Shown here in pieces: positions 12,291-18,239 of a stretch of 64,000 nt of DNA. A program made the position numbers and the translations under genes. Origin of the DNA: an uncultured delta proteobacterium (GTDB lineage: Bacteria > Myxococcota > Myxococcia > Myxococcales > Myxococcaceae). The notes under the pieces were generated by a model. The model did no database searches. It saw only the letters and a program-made list of their open reading frames with translations, and was not told where the DNA came from. The number at the start of each line of letters is the position of its first letter. Position 1 is the first letter of the stretch. The DNA is taken from the NCBI GenBank assembly GCA_963776345.1, contig CAVZMH010000016.1, positions 768,001 through 832,000 of the forward strand, written 5' to 3'.

Positions 12291-12980
12291 CTACTCGATC
12301 ACGTCGTTGACGTCGTTCCTCGGGGTCCCCGCGGGGAGGCTCCTCCCGTCCGGCTGCGACCGATCCTCGCTGGAGACGGTCCACACGTCGACGGTGGGGT
12401 CGTTGTCGATGTTCCCCACGCACGCAGCGAGGAACGCATCCCCGTTCACCCCGAGGGCCAGTGACTGCGCACGGGCCTCGGCCACCGGATCGAAACCGGC
12501 AGGGAGCACATAGCGGGCATCGATCGGCAGCACCGCGCTCTCGGAGAGCAGATAGGCGTACCGGTTGCCGGCGGGGACCACGAACTCGAGCTCCGAAAAG
12601 GTCCCTGCGTAGCGGCCGTGCCCGGCGCGGTAGCCCTCCTCCGCCTTCCAGAGCGCCCGGAGATTCACCCTGCACTCGTTCTGCTTGGCACGCGCCTGGT
12701 AGCGAATGAAGTTGGGGATGGCGATCGCTGCCAGCATCCCCAGCTGGAAGGGGAGGATCCCCACCGCGACCACGATCGCCGCGATCGCCCGCCCACGGCC
12801 CGGGAGCTGCGGCTCACGCCGGATCCGGAGGAGCGCCACGATCCCGAGGATCGCCCCCGCCACGGAGCTGAAGCAGATGCAAAGGCCTCCGATGCTCAGC
12901 GCCAGAGCGATGGTCGGAAGAGGGTAGGCAGGCCGCTGCACCGTCTCGCCGGGTCGCACGGCGGGCGAGCTTCGACCCAT
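12291..12980 (-). CDS. DUF4190 membrane domain fused to a type IV pilin-like domain
   Basis: GAILGIVALLRIRREPQLPGRGRAIAAI (DUF4190-like), then LAAIAIPNFIRYQARAKQNECRVNL...GNRYAY...CVGNIDNDPTVDVW (myxobacterial PilA-like). Confidence 0.8.
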   Translation of the reverse strand: MGRSSPAVRPGETVQRPAYPLPTIALALSIGGLCICFSSVAGAILGIVALLRIRREPQLPGRGRAIAAIVVAVGILPFQLGMLAAIAIPNFIRYQARAKQNECRVNLRALWKAEEGYRAGHGRYAGTFSELEFVVPAGNRYAYLLSESAVLPIDARYVLPAGFDPVAEARAQSLALGVNGDAFLAACVGNIDNDPTVDVWTVSSEDRSQPDGRSLPAGTPRNDVNDVIE

Positions 12981-13147: not shown

Positions 13148-14938
13148 ATGAGCACCCCCCAGGCGATCGCCCGCACCATCCTCGACGGCTTCGAGAAGCG
13201 CTGGGCGCAGTTCCGGGCGCTGAGCGCCGCGGCAAAGGACCGCTTCGAGAAGGCGGACTGGGCGGGCGCGCATGCGCTGAGCCGGCTGGGCATCGGGACC
13301 TACGACGAGCGGGTCCACGAGTCGGTGGAGTCGGTGCTGCGTCTCTACCCGGACGCCCGCACCGACGAGACGCTCTGGCCGCAGGTGAAGCAGGCCTACA
13401 TCGCGCTGCTCTACGACCACAAGCGCCCGGAGTGCGCGGAGACGTTCTACAACTCCGTCGCCTGCCGGGTGCTCGACCGCACCTACTACCGGAACGAGTA
13501 CATCTTCTGGCGCCAGGCGGTGGCCACCGAGTTCATCGACGCGGACGACGTGACCTGGCGGTGCTGGTACCCCACGTCCGGGACCCTGCTCTCCACCTTC
13601 GGCGCCATCGCCCGGAGCCTCGGCCTCTCGGTGCCCTTCGAGGACCTGCGCCGCGACCTTCGCCAGGTGCTGCTCGCGTTCCGGGAGCACCTACCCGGGA
13701 CGCGGGAGCGTCAGCTCAACTTCCAGGTTCAGGTGCTCTCCTCGCTCTTCTTCCGCGACAAGGGCGCGTACGTCGTCGGGCGCATCCTCAACGGCAACCA
13801 GCAGACGCCGTTCGTCGCTTGCCTGCGGCACTCGCCTTCGGGCTGCGGCCTGCAGGTCGACGCGCTCCTGCTCAAGGGCGAGCACCTGGCGGCGCTGTTC
13901 AGCCTCTCGCGCGCCTACTTCATCCTCGACATGGACGTGCCGTCCGAGTTCGTCGCCTTCCTCAACCAGCTGATGCCCGGGAAGTCGAAGGCCGAGCTGT
14001 ACACCTCGGTGGGGCTGCAGAAGCAGGGCAAGACGCTCTTCTACCGGGACCTCCACTCGAGCCTGAAGCACTCCACCGACGCGTTCGTGCTCGCCCCGGG
14101 CGTCCGGGGGATGGTGATGATGGTGTTCACCCTCCCCTCGTTCCCGTGGGTGTTCAAGGTGATTCGGGACGAGTTCCCTCCCCCGAAACAGGTCACCCGC
14201 GAGGAGGTACGCGCCAAGTACCTGCTGGTGAAGTACCACGACCGCGTGGGGCGGCTCCCGGACGCCCTCGAGTACTCCGACGTGCTGTTCCCCGCCGGGC
14301 GAATGCACCCGGAGGTGGTGCAGGAGCTCGAGCGCTCGTGCGCGCGCAGCGTGGAACGGGAGGGGGACCGGCTGGTGGTGAAGCACCTCTACGTCGAGCG
14401 GCGCATGACCCCGCTGGACCTGTGGCTCCGGCACGCTGACGAGGCGCAGCAGCGGCACGCGGTCCACGAGTTCGGGCAGGCGATCCGCGACCTCGCCGAG
14501 GCCAACATCTTTGCTGGCGATCTCCTGCTCAAGAACTTCGGCATCACGGGCCGCGGCCGGGTGGTCTTCTACGACTACGACGAGATCTCGCTGCTGACCG
14601 AGGTGAACTTCCGGCGGCTGCCGAGCGCGCGCGACGAGGCGGAGGAGTCCGCTGCCGAGCCCTGGTTTCACGTGGGCGCGCGCGACGTGTTCCCCGAGGA
14701 GTTGATCCGTTTCCTCTTCCCGCCGGGACGGCTGCGCGAGCTCTTCGTGGAGATGCACGGCGACCTGCTCGACCCCGCGTGGTGGATCGCGCGCCAGGAG
14801 GAGATCCGCTCGGGGAAGCAGCCGGACTTCGTCCCCTACCCGGACGAGGTGCGGCTGGGGCGGCTCCCGGGATGGCGTTCCGGCGCCGCGGGCCTCGGTG
14901 CGAGTCGACGGCGAGCCGGGCTCGCTACTTCGGGGTGA
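13148..14938 (+). CDS. aceK: Isocitrate dehydrogenase kinase/phosphatase
   Basis: AETFYNSV, KQGKTLFYR, APGVRGMVMMVFTLP, DLLLKNFG, RVVFYDYDEI. Confidence 0.95.
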   Translation: MSTPQAIARTILDGFEKRWAQFRALSAAAKDRFEKADWAGAHALSRLGIGTYDERVHESVESVLRLYPDARTDETLWPQVKQAYIALLYDHKRPECAETFYNSVACRVLDRTYYRNEYIFWRQAVATEFIDADDVTWRCWYPTSGTLLSTFGAIARSLGLSVPFEDLRRDLRQVLLAFREHLPGTRERQLNFQVQVLSSLFFRDKGAYVVGRILNGNQQTPFVACLRHSPSGCGLQVDALLLKGEHLAALFSLSRAYFILDMDVPSEFVAFLNQLMPGKSKAELYTSVGLQKQGKTLFYRDLHSSLKHSTDAFVLAPGVRGMVMMVFTLPSFPWVFKVIRDEFPPPKQVTREEVRAKYLLVKYHDRVGRLPDALEYSDVLFPAGRMHPEVVQELERSCARSVEREGDRLVVKHLYVERRMTPLDLWLRHADEAQQRHAVHEFGQAIRDLAEANIFAGDLLLKNFGITGRGRVVFYDYDEISLLTEVNFRRLPSARDEAEESAAEPWFHVGARDVFPEELIRFLFPPGRLRELFVEMHGDLLDPAWWIARQEEIRSGKQPDFVPYPDEVRLGRLPGWRSGAAGLGASRRRAGLATSG

Positions 14939-15179
14939 ACGTCGCCTCCGGGCAGCTCGAGGTGCACTTGCCCGCGGTGATGTCCGAGCAGCTCGAGCCG
15001 TTGAGGCACTGGGCGCAGGTGCTGTCCGGGCCGCCGCAGCTCGCGTCGCACGAGAAGCCCGAAGAGTTCAGGCTGCACGTCTGGAGCTTGTCGCAGGCGT
15101 CCTTGCAGCTCGCGCTGGTCCCGCAGCCGGCCAGCGCCATGCTGAGTGCCGCGAGGCACCCCATCCACCGTCTCTTCAT
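14925..15179 (-). CDS. Small Cys-rich lipoprotein (84 aa)
   Basis: MKRRW...LAGC lipobox followed by ten Cys; GGAGAG ribosome-binding site upstream. Confidence 0.75.
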   Translation of the reverse strand: MKRRWMGCLAALSMALAGCGTSASCKDACDKLQTCSLNSSGFSCDASCGGPDSTCAQCLNGSSCSDITAGKCTSSCPEATFTPK

Positions 15180-15400
15180 CTGTCTCTCCCCGTTCGTCGA
15201 CGCGGGGCTCCGGTGACAACCGGCCATCGCCCGCTCTTCGAAGTAGACCCGGCGATGCTGACGCGTTGCATCCCCACCTCGCCCCACCCGCCGCAGCGCG
15301 CCGGCGCCACGAGGCGGAATCGACCCACTGACGGTGCGATTGCACCGGTGGCAAGCTCCGCCGACCGTCGCCTTTCGGATGACGTGTGGGGGTCTCTTGC

Positions 15401-15976
15401 ATGAAGACGACGCTTGCCTCGGCAGTGCTCGCACTCGCTCTGGTTCACGGCTCCACGGCGCTCGCCCACGATCGTGACGATCTCCGGTCGGGCCCGTTCT
15501 TCGTCACCGTCGACGGGGTCACCGGCGAGTCGAAGATCAAGGGCCACGAGGGTCAGATCGAGGGCTACAACTTCTCGGAGACCTGGCGAAACACGGTCAC
15601 CACCGGCACCGGGGGCGGCGGCGGCGCGGGGAAGCCCACGCTGGGGCCGGTGGTCTTCAACAAGGCCCAGGGAGCGGCCAGCATCAAGCTCCTCAAGGCC
15701 CTGCTGACGGGCGAGCACATCAAGAAGGTGGTCATCGAGTTCTTCGACCAGGCCCAGGACGGCAAGAGCGTGGTCACCTACCGAATCACGCTCCAGGAAG
15801 TCTTCGTGGTGGGTCTCAGCGAGAAGAGCGCCGGCGCGGGTCTGGTCGACGAGGTCCAGCTCATGTTCGAGTCCGCAAAGTGGGAGGTCTTCGACCCGGC
15901 GGACTCGGTCACCTTCGACGGCAAGACCAACAAGGTGAACGCCACCGCGCCCACGGGCGGGCGCAGCACCCGGTGA
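15401..15976 (+). CDS. hcp: Hcp (T6SS tube) family protein with N-terminal Sec signal peptide
   Basis: VDGVTGESKIKGHEGQIE, GGGGAGK, FNKAQGAASIKLLKALLTGEHIKKVVI, YRITLQEVFV and DEVQLMF match the Hcp fold; MKTTLASAVLALALVHGSTALA is a typical signal peptide. Confidence 0.85.
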   Translation: MKTTLASAVLALALVHGSTALAHDRDDLRSGPFFVTVDGVTGESKIKGHEGQIEGYNFSETWRNTVTTGTGGGGGAGKPTLGPVVFNKAQGAASIKLLKALLTGEHIKKVVIEFFDQAQDGKSVVTYRITLQEVFVVGLSEKSAGAGLVDEVQLMFESAKWEVFDPADSVTFDGKTNKVNATAPTGGRSTR

Positions 15977-15977
15977 C

Positions 15978-16526
15978 ATGGTCCGCGGCCTGAGCGTGGG
16001 GCGCAGCTCCCTCCCGGCGCTGGTCGGGGCCGTGGCGCTCGCCCTCGCCTGTGGCTCGGGGACCGACGGGACCTCGCCGTCGGCGTCTCCGACGACGGCT
16101 GACCCCGGGTCCGGCGGGGACACGCCGCCCGGCGCCCAGGCCGAGGCGCCCGGGCCATGGGCCCCGAGCCGCGCCCTGGCGCTGGACCGGTTCGCGCTCG
16201 AGACCGCGCTGCAGTCGGCGCTGCAGGAGCCAGTCGGAGCCGAGCTGAGCGAGTCCACGGTGTGGACGCTGACCGGGGAGAGCGTCGAGCTCCGGCTCGA
16301 GGTCCGCACCTGGTTCTCGGGAGCGGAGGCGGAGGCAGCCTGCCGTGCAGCGGCGGGCGACGGGGCCGCGAGCTCGCTCTCACTCGGCACGCCAACCTGG
16401 GCCACCCAGGAAGCGGTCCACGTCACCCTCGGCGACGCGTGCGTGAAGGTGAGCGTGGTGCGCGGGCCCAATCAGGACGTGGCCGGCGCAACGGCCATCG
16501 CGGCCGCTCTGTTCGAGGCACGGTAG
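15978..16526 (+). CDS. Lipoprotein of unknown function
   Basis: Starts 1 nt after the hcp stop; LALAC lipobox, Ser/Pro/Thr linker and a compact domain with two Cys. Confidence 0.7.
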   Translation: MVRGLSVGRSSLPALVGAVALALACGSGTDGTSPSASPTTADPGSGGDTPPGAQAEAPGPWAPSRALALDRFALETALQSALQEPVGAELSESTVWTLTGESVELRLEVRTWFSGAEAEAACRAAAGDGAASSLSLGTPTWATQEAVHVTLGDACVKVSVVRGPNQDVAGATAIAAALFEAR

Positions 16527-16656
16527 ACCACCACCGCTGACGCGTCGCATCCCCAACCCACCGCGCTCTGCGCCCGACCTCGACACGGGGCGAAGACGGT
16601 CGCCACGACGCTCGTGGCGCCCGGGTAGAGCGACCGCTGCCGGCGACCGCGGGCCG

Positions 16657-17622
16657 CTATCCGCCCGGAGGTGCGCTGGTCGAGGACACCCCGACACCCT
16701 CGACGGGCCGGCCGGCCGGCGCCAGCCTCCGCCCCACGCTGCACTCCGGACGGAGCACGCAGCGGGCGCAGAGCTCGGCCCGGGCCCGCGGCGGACAGGC
16801 GCCGCTCATCCCGTGGTGGCAGAGCACGAAGTCGAAGCGGACCGGATCCGCCGGGTCGATGGCGGCGAGGTTCCGGGTGATGTCCTCGGCCGCCGCCCAC
16901 CCCATCGTCCGACGGCGCACCAGGCCCAGCCGCCACGCCAGCCGCGCGACGTGGGTGTCGAGCGGGACGAGGAGCGCGCTCGCCGGGACCTGCCGCCAGA
17001 TGCCCAGGTCGATGCCGTCCGGCCCCCGCACCATCCACCGGAGGAAGAGGTGGAGTCGCTTCGCCGCGCCCGCCCCCAGCGGCACGGGCAGCAGGTGATC
17101 GAGGCCGCGCGTCTTCCCGAGAGCCCGCTCCACCGCCGCCATGTCGACGTCTCGCAGCTCCCGGACGAAGGCCCCGATCGCCCCGTGCAGCTCGCCACCG
17201 GACGCCTCGCGCGCGGCCACGAACCCGGCCTCGAGCGACCGGCGGCGCTCCAGCATCCGCCCCATGCCCAGGAGGAGCACCGACACGTCCGCGCCGACGT
17301 TGAAGCGGTAGACGAACCCCGAGAGCAGCGCCCGCGCGCCGGACAGGGTCAGCCCGCGGACGAACCGGGCCGGCGAGGGCCCCATCGCCCGGAGGAGCCG
17401 CGTGACTCTTGGCAGGAACAGGTCCGCGCGCCCGTAGGCCAGCGAGGCGGCCAGGAGCGCCGCCACCTCGACGTCGCGCGGGTCCGAGTAGAGGTGCGGG
17501 AGCGAGACCGGATCGAGCGGGAGCCGCCGGCGGGGCGGGGACGTCCGCTCCAGCCGCTCCAGCGCCCGGCGGAGCCGCACGGCCCGCTCGGGGGACAGCT
17601 GATGGGTGCGGCCGCGGCGCAT
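16657..17622 (-). CDS. TIGR02757/DUF2400 family protein (HhH-GPD-like)
   Basis: DPVSLPHLY, EVAALLAASLAYG, KRLHLFLRWMVR, DLGIW, PLDTHV, DPVRFDF, C-terminal Cys cluster. Confidence 0.88.
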   Translation of the reverse strand: MRRGRTHQLSPERAVRLRRALERLERTSPPRRRLPLDPVSLPHLYSDPRDVEVAALLAASLAYGRADLFLPRVTRLLRAMGPSPARFVRGLTLSGARALLSGFVYRFNVGADVSVLLLGMGRMLERRRSLEAGFVAAREASGGELHGAIGAFVRELRDVDMAAVERALGKTRGLDHLLPVPLGAGAAKRLHLFLRWMVRGPDGIDLGIWRQVPASALLVPLDTHVARLAWRLGLVRRRTMGWAAAEDITRNLAAIDPADPVRFDFVLCHHGMSGACPPRARAELCARCVLRPECSVGRRLAPAGRPVEGVGVSSTSAPPGG

Positions 17623-17627
17623 GGGGG

Positions 17628-18239
17628 CTACCGGCTCAGCTCGCGCACGGCGTGGCCGAGCTCGGGGAGGATCAGCCGGTCCAGCGCCAGCCGGACCGCG
17701 TTGGGGCTCCCGGGGAGCACGAAGACCAGCGCCCCGCGCACCGTCCCCGCCAGCGCCCGCGACAGCCAGGCCGCGCTGCCGATCTCCTGGAACGACAGCA
17801 TCCGGAACAGCTCGCCGAACCCGGGGATCTCCTTGTCCAGGAGCGGCCGCACCGCCTCCACCGTCTGGTCCCGCCGGGTGATGCCCGTGCCCCCGGTGAT
17901 GAGCACCGCCCGGGCCCCGCCCTCGAGGCCCCGGTCCACCGCGGCCCGGATGGCCTCCGGCTCGTCGCGGACCACCGTCTGGCCCACCACGGTGTGGCCG
18001 GCCGCCTCGAGCCCCTCGCGCAGCGCGCGCCCGCTCACGTCGTCCGCATGCGCCCGGGAATCGGAGCAGGTCAGGACGAAGCAGGCCACGTGCGTGGGCG
18101 CATCGGTGCGATGCTGCCGGGCCGGGCTCTCGCCATGCGCCGGGACGCCGGCCTGGCCCGGATCGGCGGACTTTTCCCCGCCGTGCCCGTGCGAGTGCCC
18201 TCCATGCTGCCCATGCCCGTGCTTGTGGTCGTGCCCCAT
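17628..18239 (-). CDS. moaB: MoaB/Mog molybdenum cofactor biosynthesis protein with His-rich N-terminus
   Basis: LTCSDSR, DDVSG, ITGGTGITRRDQTVEA, PGFGELFR, SRA, LPGSPNA. Confidence 0.92.
   Translation of the reverse strand: MGHDHKHGHGQHGGHSHGHGGEKSADPGQAGVPAHGESPARQHRTDAPTHVACFVLTCSDSRAHADDVSGRALREGLEAAGHTVVGQTVVRDEPEAIRAAVDRGLEGGARAVLITGGTGITRRDQTVEAVRPLLDKEIPGFGELFRMLSFQEIGSAAWLSRALAGTVRGALVFVLPGSPNAVRLALDRLILPELGHAVRELSR

Follow-up and report, generated by a model that had tools for sequence, protein, structure and literature searches.

What is an Hcp-like protein doing behind an apparent signal peptide and directly upstream of a lipoprotein gene? Hcp is a hallmark of type VI secretion systems (T6SS) and is taken as a cytoplasmic, leaderless protein that depends on the secretion machine. 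The unexpected arrangement was noticed in the window, a 64,000-nt stretch of DNA from an uncultured delta proteobacterium (GenBank assembly GCA_963776345.1, contig CAVZMH010000016.1, positions 768,001 to 832,000). The original prediction proposed that the Hcp fold is repurposed here as a periplasmic or extracellular ring or tube, exported independently of the T6SS and joined by the lipoprotein. A conserved signal-peptide Hcp with a partner in T6SS-free genomes would show a tube protein domesticated for a job in the envelope; neither the presence of hcp nor the finding of Hcp in secretomes would then be proof of a T6SS. The unit in question is small (two genes, 1.25 kb) and directly testable.

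The hcp locus and its leader

The hcp gene (15401..15976, plus strand) encodes a 191-aa protein of the Hcp/TssD fold, with a barrel over residues 30-180 and a basic C-terminal tail that ends in Arg. As originally described, a full Hcp-like sequence, which matches PF05638, follows a classical signal peptide with Lys2, a hydrophobic core and A20-L-A22; residues 1-22 (15401..15466, plus strand) are predicted by our own heuristic to be a Sec/SPase I signal peptide with cleavage after Ala22. Both of the neighbours that had been reported are in place, namely a lipoprotein gene (15978..16526, plus strand; 182 aa, lipobox Cys25) whose ATG at 15978 lies 1 nt past the hcp stop, and a Cys-rich lipoprotein gene (14925..15179, minus strand; 84 aa, ten Cys) that is divergent from hcp. 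In the intergenic region between the divergent genes (15180..15400), a G-rich, RBS-like run lies 8-12 nt 5' of the hcp ATG, and the start of most hcp homologues is also preceded by a G-rich run; no sigma-70 consensus promoter was found in the hcp upstream region and no plus-strand terminator at the hcp-lipoprotein locus. An assembly artefact was ruled out as the source of the gene arrangement, since an independent DNA contig from a public run, which may be near the source sample, spans 13757-17699 with 65 substitutions and no gaps. A 223-nt contig of a relative's lipoprotein gene occurs in one metatranscriptome run, which does not show transcription. Elsewhere in the window, a DUF4190 and type IV pilin-like (Pilin_PilA) protein is encoded at 12291-12980 on the minus strand, divergent from aceK.

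A true start downstream of the hydrophobic segment, named at the outset as a threat to the original prediction, was ruled out for the window gene, in which ATG, GTG and TTG are all absent between codon 18 and the first strand; 7 codons 5' of the hcp ATG the reading frame is closed by a TGA. The leader is also conserved. A homologue search returned 41 proteins with 54-94% identity, 39 of which span 96% or more of the query together with its leader. Fifty distinct full-length hcp genes were cut from genome and metagenome loci and 44 of them scored for a signal pattern defined by our own heuristic rather than by SignalP (Lys/Arg in residues 1-5, a hydrophobic core, and AxA at 17-26); the other 6, in which the strand-1 motif was missed, have a similar leader by eye. 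Lys or Arg within the first five residues and the hydrophobic core were both found in 44/44 scored genes and AxA in 43/44, so that the n- and h-regions are kept throughout the survey, and A20 and A22 are nearly invariant among 42 aligned Hcps. The T6SS-linked Hcps of relatives (L023, L035, L134 and L140, for example) begin right at strand 1, as judged by eye. By this heuristic, all 44 scored genes thus differ from the tube component of a T6SS-i, which is cytoplasmic and free of a signal peptide.

Family, fold and conserved residues of the Hcp

PF05638 spans residues 34-162 of the hcp product (E 2e-26; 93.1 bits, cut-off 23.5), with model positions 1-128 of 129 aligned, and this HMM search, suggested with the original prediction, bears out the family assignment; no other Pfam domain was found in the protein. 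Its score for TIGR03344, the T6SS tube protein TssD, was 47.1 bits, below the NCBIfam cut-off of 58.9. The AlphaFold2 (AF2) model (pLDDT 79, residues 1-29 unstructured) has a predicted beta-barrel, one flanking helix and an overhang loop, and superposes on Hcp1 (1Y12) with Z 19.4, rmsd 2.0 Å over 147 residues and 24% identity. Across residues 30-180 it matches solved Hcps with Z 19.4-19.6, whereas pyocin and eCIS tubes reach only Z 9-11, against about 19 for Hcp.

With the T6SS-i Hcp1/TssD proteins (PA0085, 1Y12; Burkholderia pseudomallei 4TV4) the window Hcp shares sequence family, fold and the GE-S motif, as well as the Gly-rich loop, the single helix and the equivalent of lumen residue S31. 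In the alignment of 42 clade members, the helix, F58, L97, G104 and W161 are conserved, the Gly-rich overhang loop is nearly invariant, and S59, which aligns with Hcp1 S31, is kept in 41/42; the T59-equivalent residue of the lumen is variable. Unlike Hcp1, the window protein carries a Sec-type signal peptide, a short acidic leader past the cleavage site and a basic tail, of which about 11 conserved residues reach past the last aligned residue and whose C-terminal Arg occurs in 41/42; it also has a fixed lipoprotein partner and a genome without T6SS genes. In addition, the W32 position of Hcp1 is E or Q in 42/42, and the D-K-S-T-P helix cap is replaced by Q-G-x-x-S-I. Judging from the sequence, these last two changes could alter ring packing, so a ring is not guaranteed. 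The Hcp core and the lipoprotein are under purifying selection, with dN/dS of 0.24 for the core, 0.47 for the leader and 0.32 for the lipoprotein domain (simple Nei-Gojobori estimates from 65 non-independent pairs of GC-rich DNA).

Absence of T6SS genes

The window genome is 5.1 Mb in size and 98.4% complete, and no TssB/C, VgrG, baseplate, membrane-complex or sheath genes were found in it, which confirms the reported lack of vgrG and tss genes in the window and extends it to the whole genome. PF04984 and PF05954 (phage-type sheath and spike) were not found either. Congeneric genome G004 has a T6SS cluster in which tssJ, K, L, M, A, B, C, hcp, E, G and part of F were recognised by eye; tblastn of its ORFs against the window genome returned no match to a T6SS core gene, and only the ClpV-like ORF matched, to a Clp ATPase with 39% identity. 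A PAAR search gave no match in the window genome, nor in T6SS-positive G004. One Hcp was found in the window genome by family search together with our own broader profile in all six frames; this single-Hcp claim rests on the six-frame profile, because the genome-wide PF05638 search is insensitive (Hcp in 3/17 genomes of one genus in which TssC was found in 17/17).

The survey of homologues against T6SS occurrence gave the same picture. TssC, VgrG, TssF and phage sheath were not found in any of the five cassette genomes that are at least 90% complete, and VgrG was detected in 4/4 T6SS-positive control genomes. A T6SS is present in 2/9 cassette genomes (G004 and G009), each with its own leaderless Hcp beside tssC. 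The exported Hcps form one group (support 99), separate from the resident T6SS Hcps, in a quick ML tree built from 72 domains, the deep branches of which are unsupported.

By sequence and fold the window Hcp belongs to the Hcp family, but it is not a T6SS component, because two defining features of such a component (no signal peptide, and T6SS genes in the genome) were tested and neither was found. T6SS membership is ruled out by the lack of sheath, spike, baseplate and membrane-complex genes together with the signal pattern, and membership of an eCIS or R-pyocin tube by the absence of PF04984 and PF05954 and by a fold nearer to Hcp. An ordinary cytoplasmic Hcp with a mis-called start, used by a T6SS or left over from one, has been largely refuted and is barely credible. 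T6SSs do occur in the two cassette genomes just mentioned, and 16/44 homologues have a possible ATG, GTG or TTG between codon 18 and strand 1; however, these late codons are scattered in position and absent from the other 28, the window gene among them, the leader is conserved as a signal pattern, and the T6SS-positive congeners have a separate, leaderless Hcp of their own. With independence judged from genome content and Sec as the presumed route of export, we are highly confident that this Hcp is exported and does not depend on a T6SS.

The lipoprotein

Among the 84 lipoprotein homologues found, lipobox Cys25 is present in 77 (the other 7 have a gap there), C122 in 84 and C155 in 82. The lipobox is followed by a low-complexity tether of about 33 residues in the window protein (24-38 aa among homologues) and a folded domain at 61-182, most of which AF2 models with pLDDT above 90. 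The protein matched no family of Pfam or NCBIfam, and Foldseek with the model had no hit below E 0.001; the fold was assigned by a wide VIA structure search, in which the domain model matched DIP2269 (3V7B) with Z 12.1, the PknH sensor (4ESQ) with 11.7 and TiME (7CU8) with 9.4 (rmsd 3.5 Å, 115 residues). Weaker matches were Tsi3 (Z 7.8), PsbP, Mog1, DcrB, TplEi (5.5) and Smlt3025 (5.1), and Atlas gave a weak lead to DUF2020/DUF3558 (0.87-0.90).

The domain is thus predicted to have a PknH-sensor/DIP2269/TiME-like (Mog1p/PsbP-like) fold, at 10-16% identity to TiME (Rv3705c), the PknH sensor and DIP2269; a shared fold does not show function. The two conserved Cys would fit an extracytoplasmic disulfide, so the combination typical of TiME, a PknH-sensor-like fold with a disulfide, is predicted for the lipoprotein as well. 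TiME is likewise an exported, disulfide-stabilised protein (PMC8378821). The window protein has a lipobox and a long tether, whereas TiME has an SPase I signal and PknH a kinase; TiME forms a ring itself, whereas the lipoprotein is instead partnered with an Hcp.

Linkage and relocation of the pair

Across 61 related genomes, both proteins were found in the same 9/13 genomes of one genus and in 0/48 others; neither family was seen without the other, and no orphan lipoprotein copies were found apart from hcp. A pattern scan of 185,579 species genomes returned 9 loci, with titles of Myxococcaceae, Myxococcota or uncultured delta proteobacterium. Conservation of the downstream lipoprotein, a point raised with the original prediction, is high: the gene comes next after hcp in 52/56 metagenomic loci, and the remaining four end at a contig edge with at most 56 nt left, all loci being from one genus and not independent. 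The gap between the two genes is 1-7 nt in 36/40 measured pairs, and the other four overlap by start choice.

The main site of the pair is the aceK-DUF2400 interval, where linkage could come from synteny alone. One sub-clade of the pair sits away from this site, and the upstream flanks of hcp form 4 clusters (25, 1, 1, 1). Similarity among loci L122, L069, L071 and L067 runs from about 130-190 nt before the ATG to the lipoprotein stop, which defines a moving unit of about 1.25 kb (leader, hcp and lipoprotein) that takes some 150 nt of upstream DNA along and occupies at least four unrelated sites. In the window genome the two flanks of L071 adjoin each other (C22:160510/160501), so that the site, where two convergent genes meet, is empty there, and G007 has the pair at the main site and again in a tRNA-rich island. 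No mobility gene was found inside the unit, and no relatives of either protein in viral contigs. Hcp and lipoprotein are a two-gene unit that relocates as a block, and the two-gene system that had been suggested is borne out by this relocation, by the pairing in metagenomic loci and by co-occurrence in the same genomes.

The divergent Cys-rich gene was rejected as part of the unit: it occurs in 28/40 loci with at least 700 nt upstream, and no match was found beside the relocated copies L011, L067, L069 and L071. This 84-aa lipoprotein is 68-75% identical across the genus and has no Pfam or NCBIfam family above cut-off.

The pair was not seen in G001, G011 and G012, where contigs break at the site or flanks are missing, nor in G003 (95% complete), which is contiguous from aceK to DUF2400 with an unrelated sigma-factor/kinase block in between. 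The interval is a variable slot: by eye, L120 (G003:C34:4500-10600) holds ECF-sigma, anti-sigma-like, TPR and Ser/Thr kinase genes, and L121 (G009) has an additional 427-aa secreted protein next to the pair. Just upstream of the second copy in G007 lies an island of nine tRNA genes (L122:1971-4463).

Gene numbers also vary. In G008 and G010 a second hcp, itself without a lipoprotein after it, lies behind the lipoprotein, while G002 has a partial second lipoprotein and G004 a lipoprotein gene in two frames, so the Hcp:lipoprotein stoichiometry is not fixed, which counts against the reading we prefer, a ring held by the lipoprotein. The second, diverged signal-peptide Hcp (L012/L040 in G010, L013/L042 in G008, L058 and L064) is about 51% identical to the window Hcp, has an altered overhang loop and a longer Asp/Arg leader, and could form mixed rings.

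These data bear on how the two proteins relate. Both might be exported and co-expressed for one envelope process without touching each other, for example with the lipoprotein as a sensor or binder of a ligand and the Hcp rings loose in the periplasm or the medium. The best fold matches of the lipoprotein are indeed stand-alone sensor or ligand-binding domains (PknH and DIP2269), other exported Hcps lack this lipoprotein, and gene numbers vary; nevertheless, the strict co-occurrence among the 61 genomes, the close spacing in most pairs and the joint relocation argue against it, and we consider the non-contact arrangement unlikely. A toxin-immunity pair, in which the exported Hcp harms neighbours and the downstream lipoprotein protects the producer, would agree with the order of a secreted protein and then a lipoprotein, with the tight coupling and mobility, and with an immunity-compatible fold. 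Pairwise identities of Hcp and lipoprotein correlate (Spearman 0.63), though shared descent explains this correlation. We regard such a pair as very unlikely, as the upstream gene has no known toxic domain or extension (PF05638 is its sole domain, with residues 30-180 all taken up by the barrel), purifying selection acts on both genes, and orphan lipoprotein copies are missing from the 61 genomes. Direct contact between Hcp and lipoprotein is, in our estimate, slightly the better bet. Complex prediction with three Hcp copies and the lipoprotein domain gave a score of 0.20 (mark 0.32).

Rings, cargo and tubes

Solved Hcps are stable hexamers of 80/40 Å, with the helix of one subunit packed against its neighbour (PMC4469607, PMC3925092), and Hcp binds effectors in its lumen, S31 of Hcp1 being a cargo-binding residue (PMC8262886). 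We propose that the window Hcp is exported via Sec, cut after Ala22 and assembled, in the periplasm or at the cell surface, into rings of six, which the lipoprotein would probably hold at a membrane. The ring would then be a tethered binding container, with the cargo lumen of Hcp reused outside the cytoplasm, and not an injection tube. Ring formation itself seems likely to us, the hexamer being suggested by the conserved helix, the aromatic residues and the six-domain relatives described below. For the reading as a whole, a mobile T6SS-independent unit of exported, lipoprotein-tethered Hcp rings that act as a binding container, we estimate a probability of roughly 0.5.

Two other uses of an exported Hcp were weighed. 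Periplasmic rings could be a defensive decoy that traps the Hcp-carried T6SS effectors of competitors, with the lipoprotein as an immunity-like helper in a mobile protection cassette. The S31 equivalent is kept in a lumen that in other Hcps binds effectors (PMC8262886), the lipoprotein fold is also found in the periplasmic immunity proteins Tsi3, TplEi and Smlt3025, the unit is mobile, and T6SS-armed relatives are common, with TssC found in 53/73 genomes of the family. However, Z values like those of the immunity proteins are what a common arrangement would give, the lumen residue equivalent to T59 is variable, and for the wider class the adhesin-type chains with six Hcp domains suggest a structural role at the surface; a decoy is rather improbable. 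Alternatively, the exported Hcp might form long tubes, either filaments on the surface or, like TiME, channels across the envelope, with the lipoprotein instead of a baseplate as the nucleus. The nearly invariant Gly-rich overhang loop and the resemblance of the lipoprotein to the tube-forming TiME domain (PMC8378821) would agree with this. Against it, native EAEC Hcp formed no tubes in vitro (PMC3925092) and ordered stacking of Hcp requires VgrG and baseplate proteins (PMC4604203), the conserved tail of about 11 residues would lie where rings meet in EAEC Hcp, and no gene for an outer-membrane exit travels with the unit. With native Hcp tube-free in vitro and the VgrG and baseplate proteins needed for stacking absent here, long tubes are the less favoured option, and we consider them very unlikely indeed. 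The original idea of a repurposed Hcp exported with a lipoprotein and without a T6SS has therefore held in respect of the conserved signal peptide, the T6SS-free genome and the two-gene unit; its tube variant has lost ground to the tethered ring, and the Cys-rich lipoprotein falls outside the unit.

Relation to described Hcp genes

In T6SS-positive bacteria, orphan hcp genes and hcp islands encode leaderless proteins that are served in trans by the T6SS of the same cell. The window gene resembles them in lying outside a T6SS cluster, and differs in that its genome has no T6SS and its product carries an export signal. PEP-CTERM-bearing Hcp-domain genes were noticed in IMG and removed from a survey (Howard et al. 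2021, PMC8262886, methods); in these, too, an Hcp domain is combined with a signal for the sorting of exported proteins, whereas the window Hcp has no PEP-CTERM match and a separate lipoprotein may supply the anchor. The accessible parts of 10.1101/2024.11.06.622250, PMC2907700 and PMC8788690 contain nothing on Hcp export signals, and no description of signal-peptide Hcps or of the hcp-lipoprotein pair was found in the portions available of the open-access literature. The hcp-lipoprotein unit is real, conserved and apparently undescribed. The strongest new evidence is the discrete, relocating unit in T6SS-less genomes.

Exported Hcp domains outside the pair

Exported Hcp is a much wider class than the hcp-lipoprotein pair. 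At E ≤0.001 a profile search hit 7,636 proteins, and ordinary T6SS Hcps will be part of this number. Domains were counted in 149 of the 150 best hits: 41 proteins have one Hcp domain, 20 two, 13 three, 10 four, 3 five, 60 six and 2 seven, with none having more. Exactly six domains thus occur in 60/108 multi-domain proteins of this score-ranked list, which favours many-domain proteins, and the stop at six, which would fit one ring per chain, supports an exported ring. Of 22 long multi-Hcp proteins scanned, 13 have RTX, Ig-like, cadherin, PKD or Calx-beta domains above cut-off.

Signal peptides or lipoboxes were recognised by eye in many of the hits with one or two domains, and unrelated signal-peptide Hcps, likewise judged by eye, occur in G031, G035, G049 and G228, genomes without a TssC match. 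The window-type lipoprotein had no match in G031, G035 and G049, so it is not needed by the wider class. A widespread, undescribed use of Hcp as exported hexameric rings, anchored here by a mobile lipoprotein and elsewhere built as six-domain chains on RTX/Ig/cadherin stalks, which capture surface or periplasmic cargo and possibly T6SS effectors, is a tentative reading that we hold at somewhat less than even odds. If it is true, many database 'T6SS Hcp' genes are not T6SS parts.

Several observations concern individual members. Within P0128-P0238, proteins such as P0129, P0131, P0140, P0142 and P0195 are about 820-2,200 aa long with exactly six tandem Hcp domains, often together with a Planctomycete-type leader or with RTX, Ig-like, cadherin, PKD or Calx-beta domains, and are candidate natural single-chain Hcp rings on adhesin stalks. 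The Myxococcales signal-peptide Hcp-like genes outside the clade are L016, L033 and L041 (G031), L032 (G035), L031 (G049) and L170 (G228); L031 and L032 have different lipoprotein-like neighbours, and L170 comprises two Hcp-like frames. Leaderless orphan Hcps in genomes with no TssC match were seen at L014 (G002), L015 (G008), L164 (G199), L165 (G202), L139 (G090) and L166 (G134), L015 lying tail to tail with a glutamine-synthetase-like gene by eye. Finally, L167 (G199), L168 (G202) and L172 (G004) are open frames of 354-466 aa that carry collagen-like Gly-Pro-x repeats ahead of an Hcp-like domain at the C-terminus.
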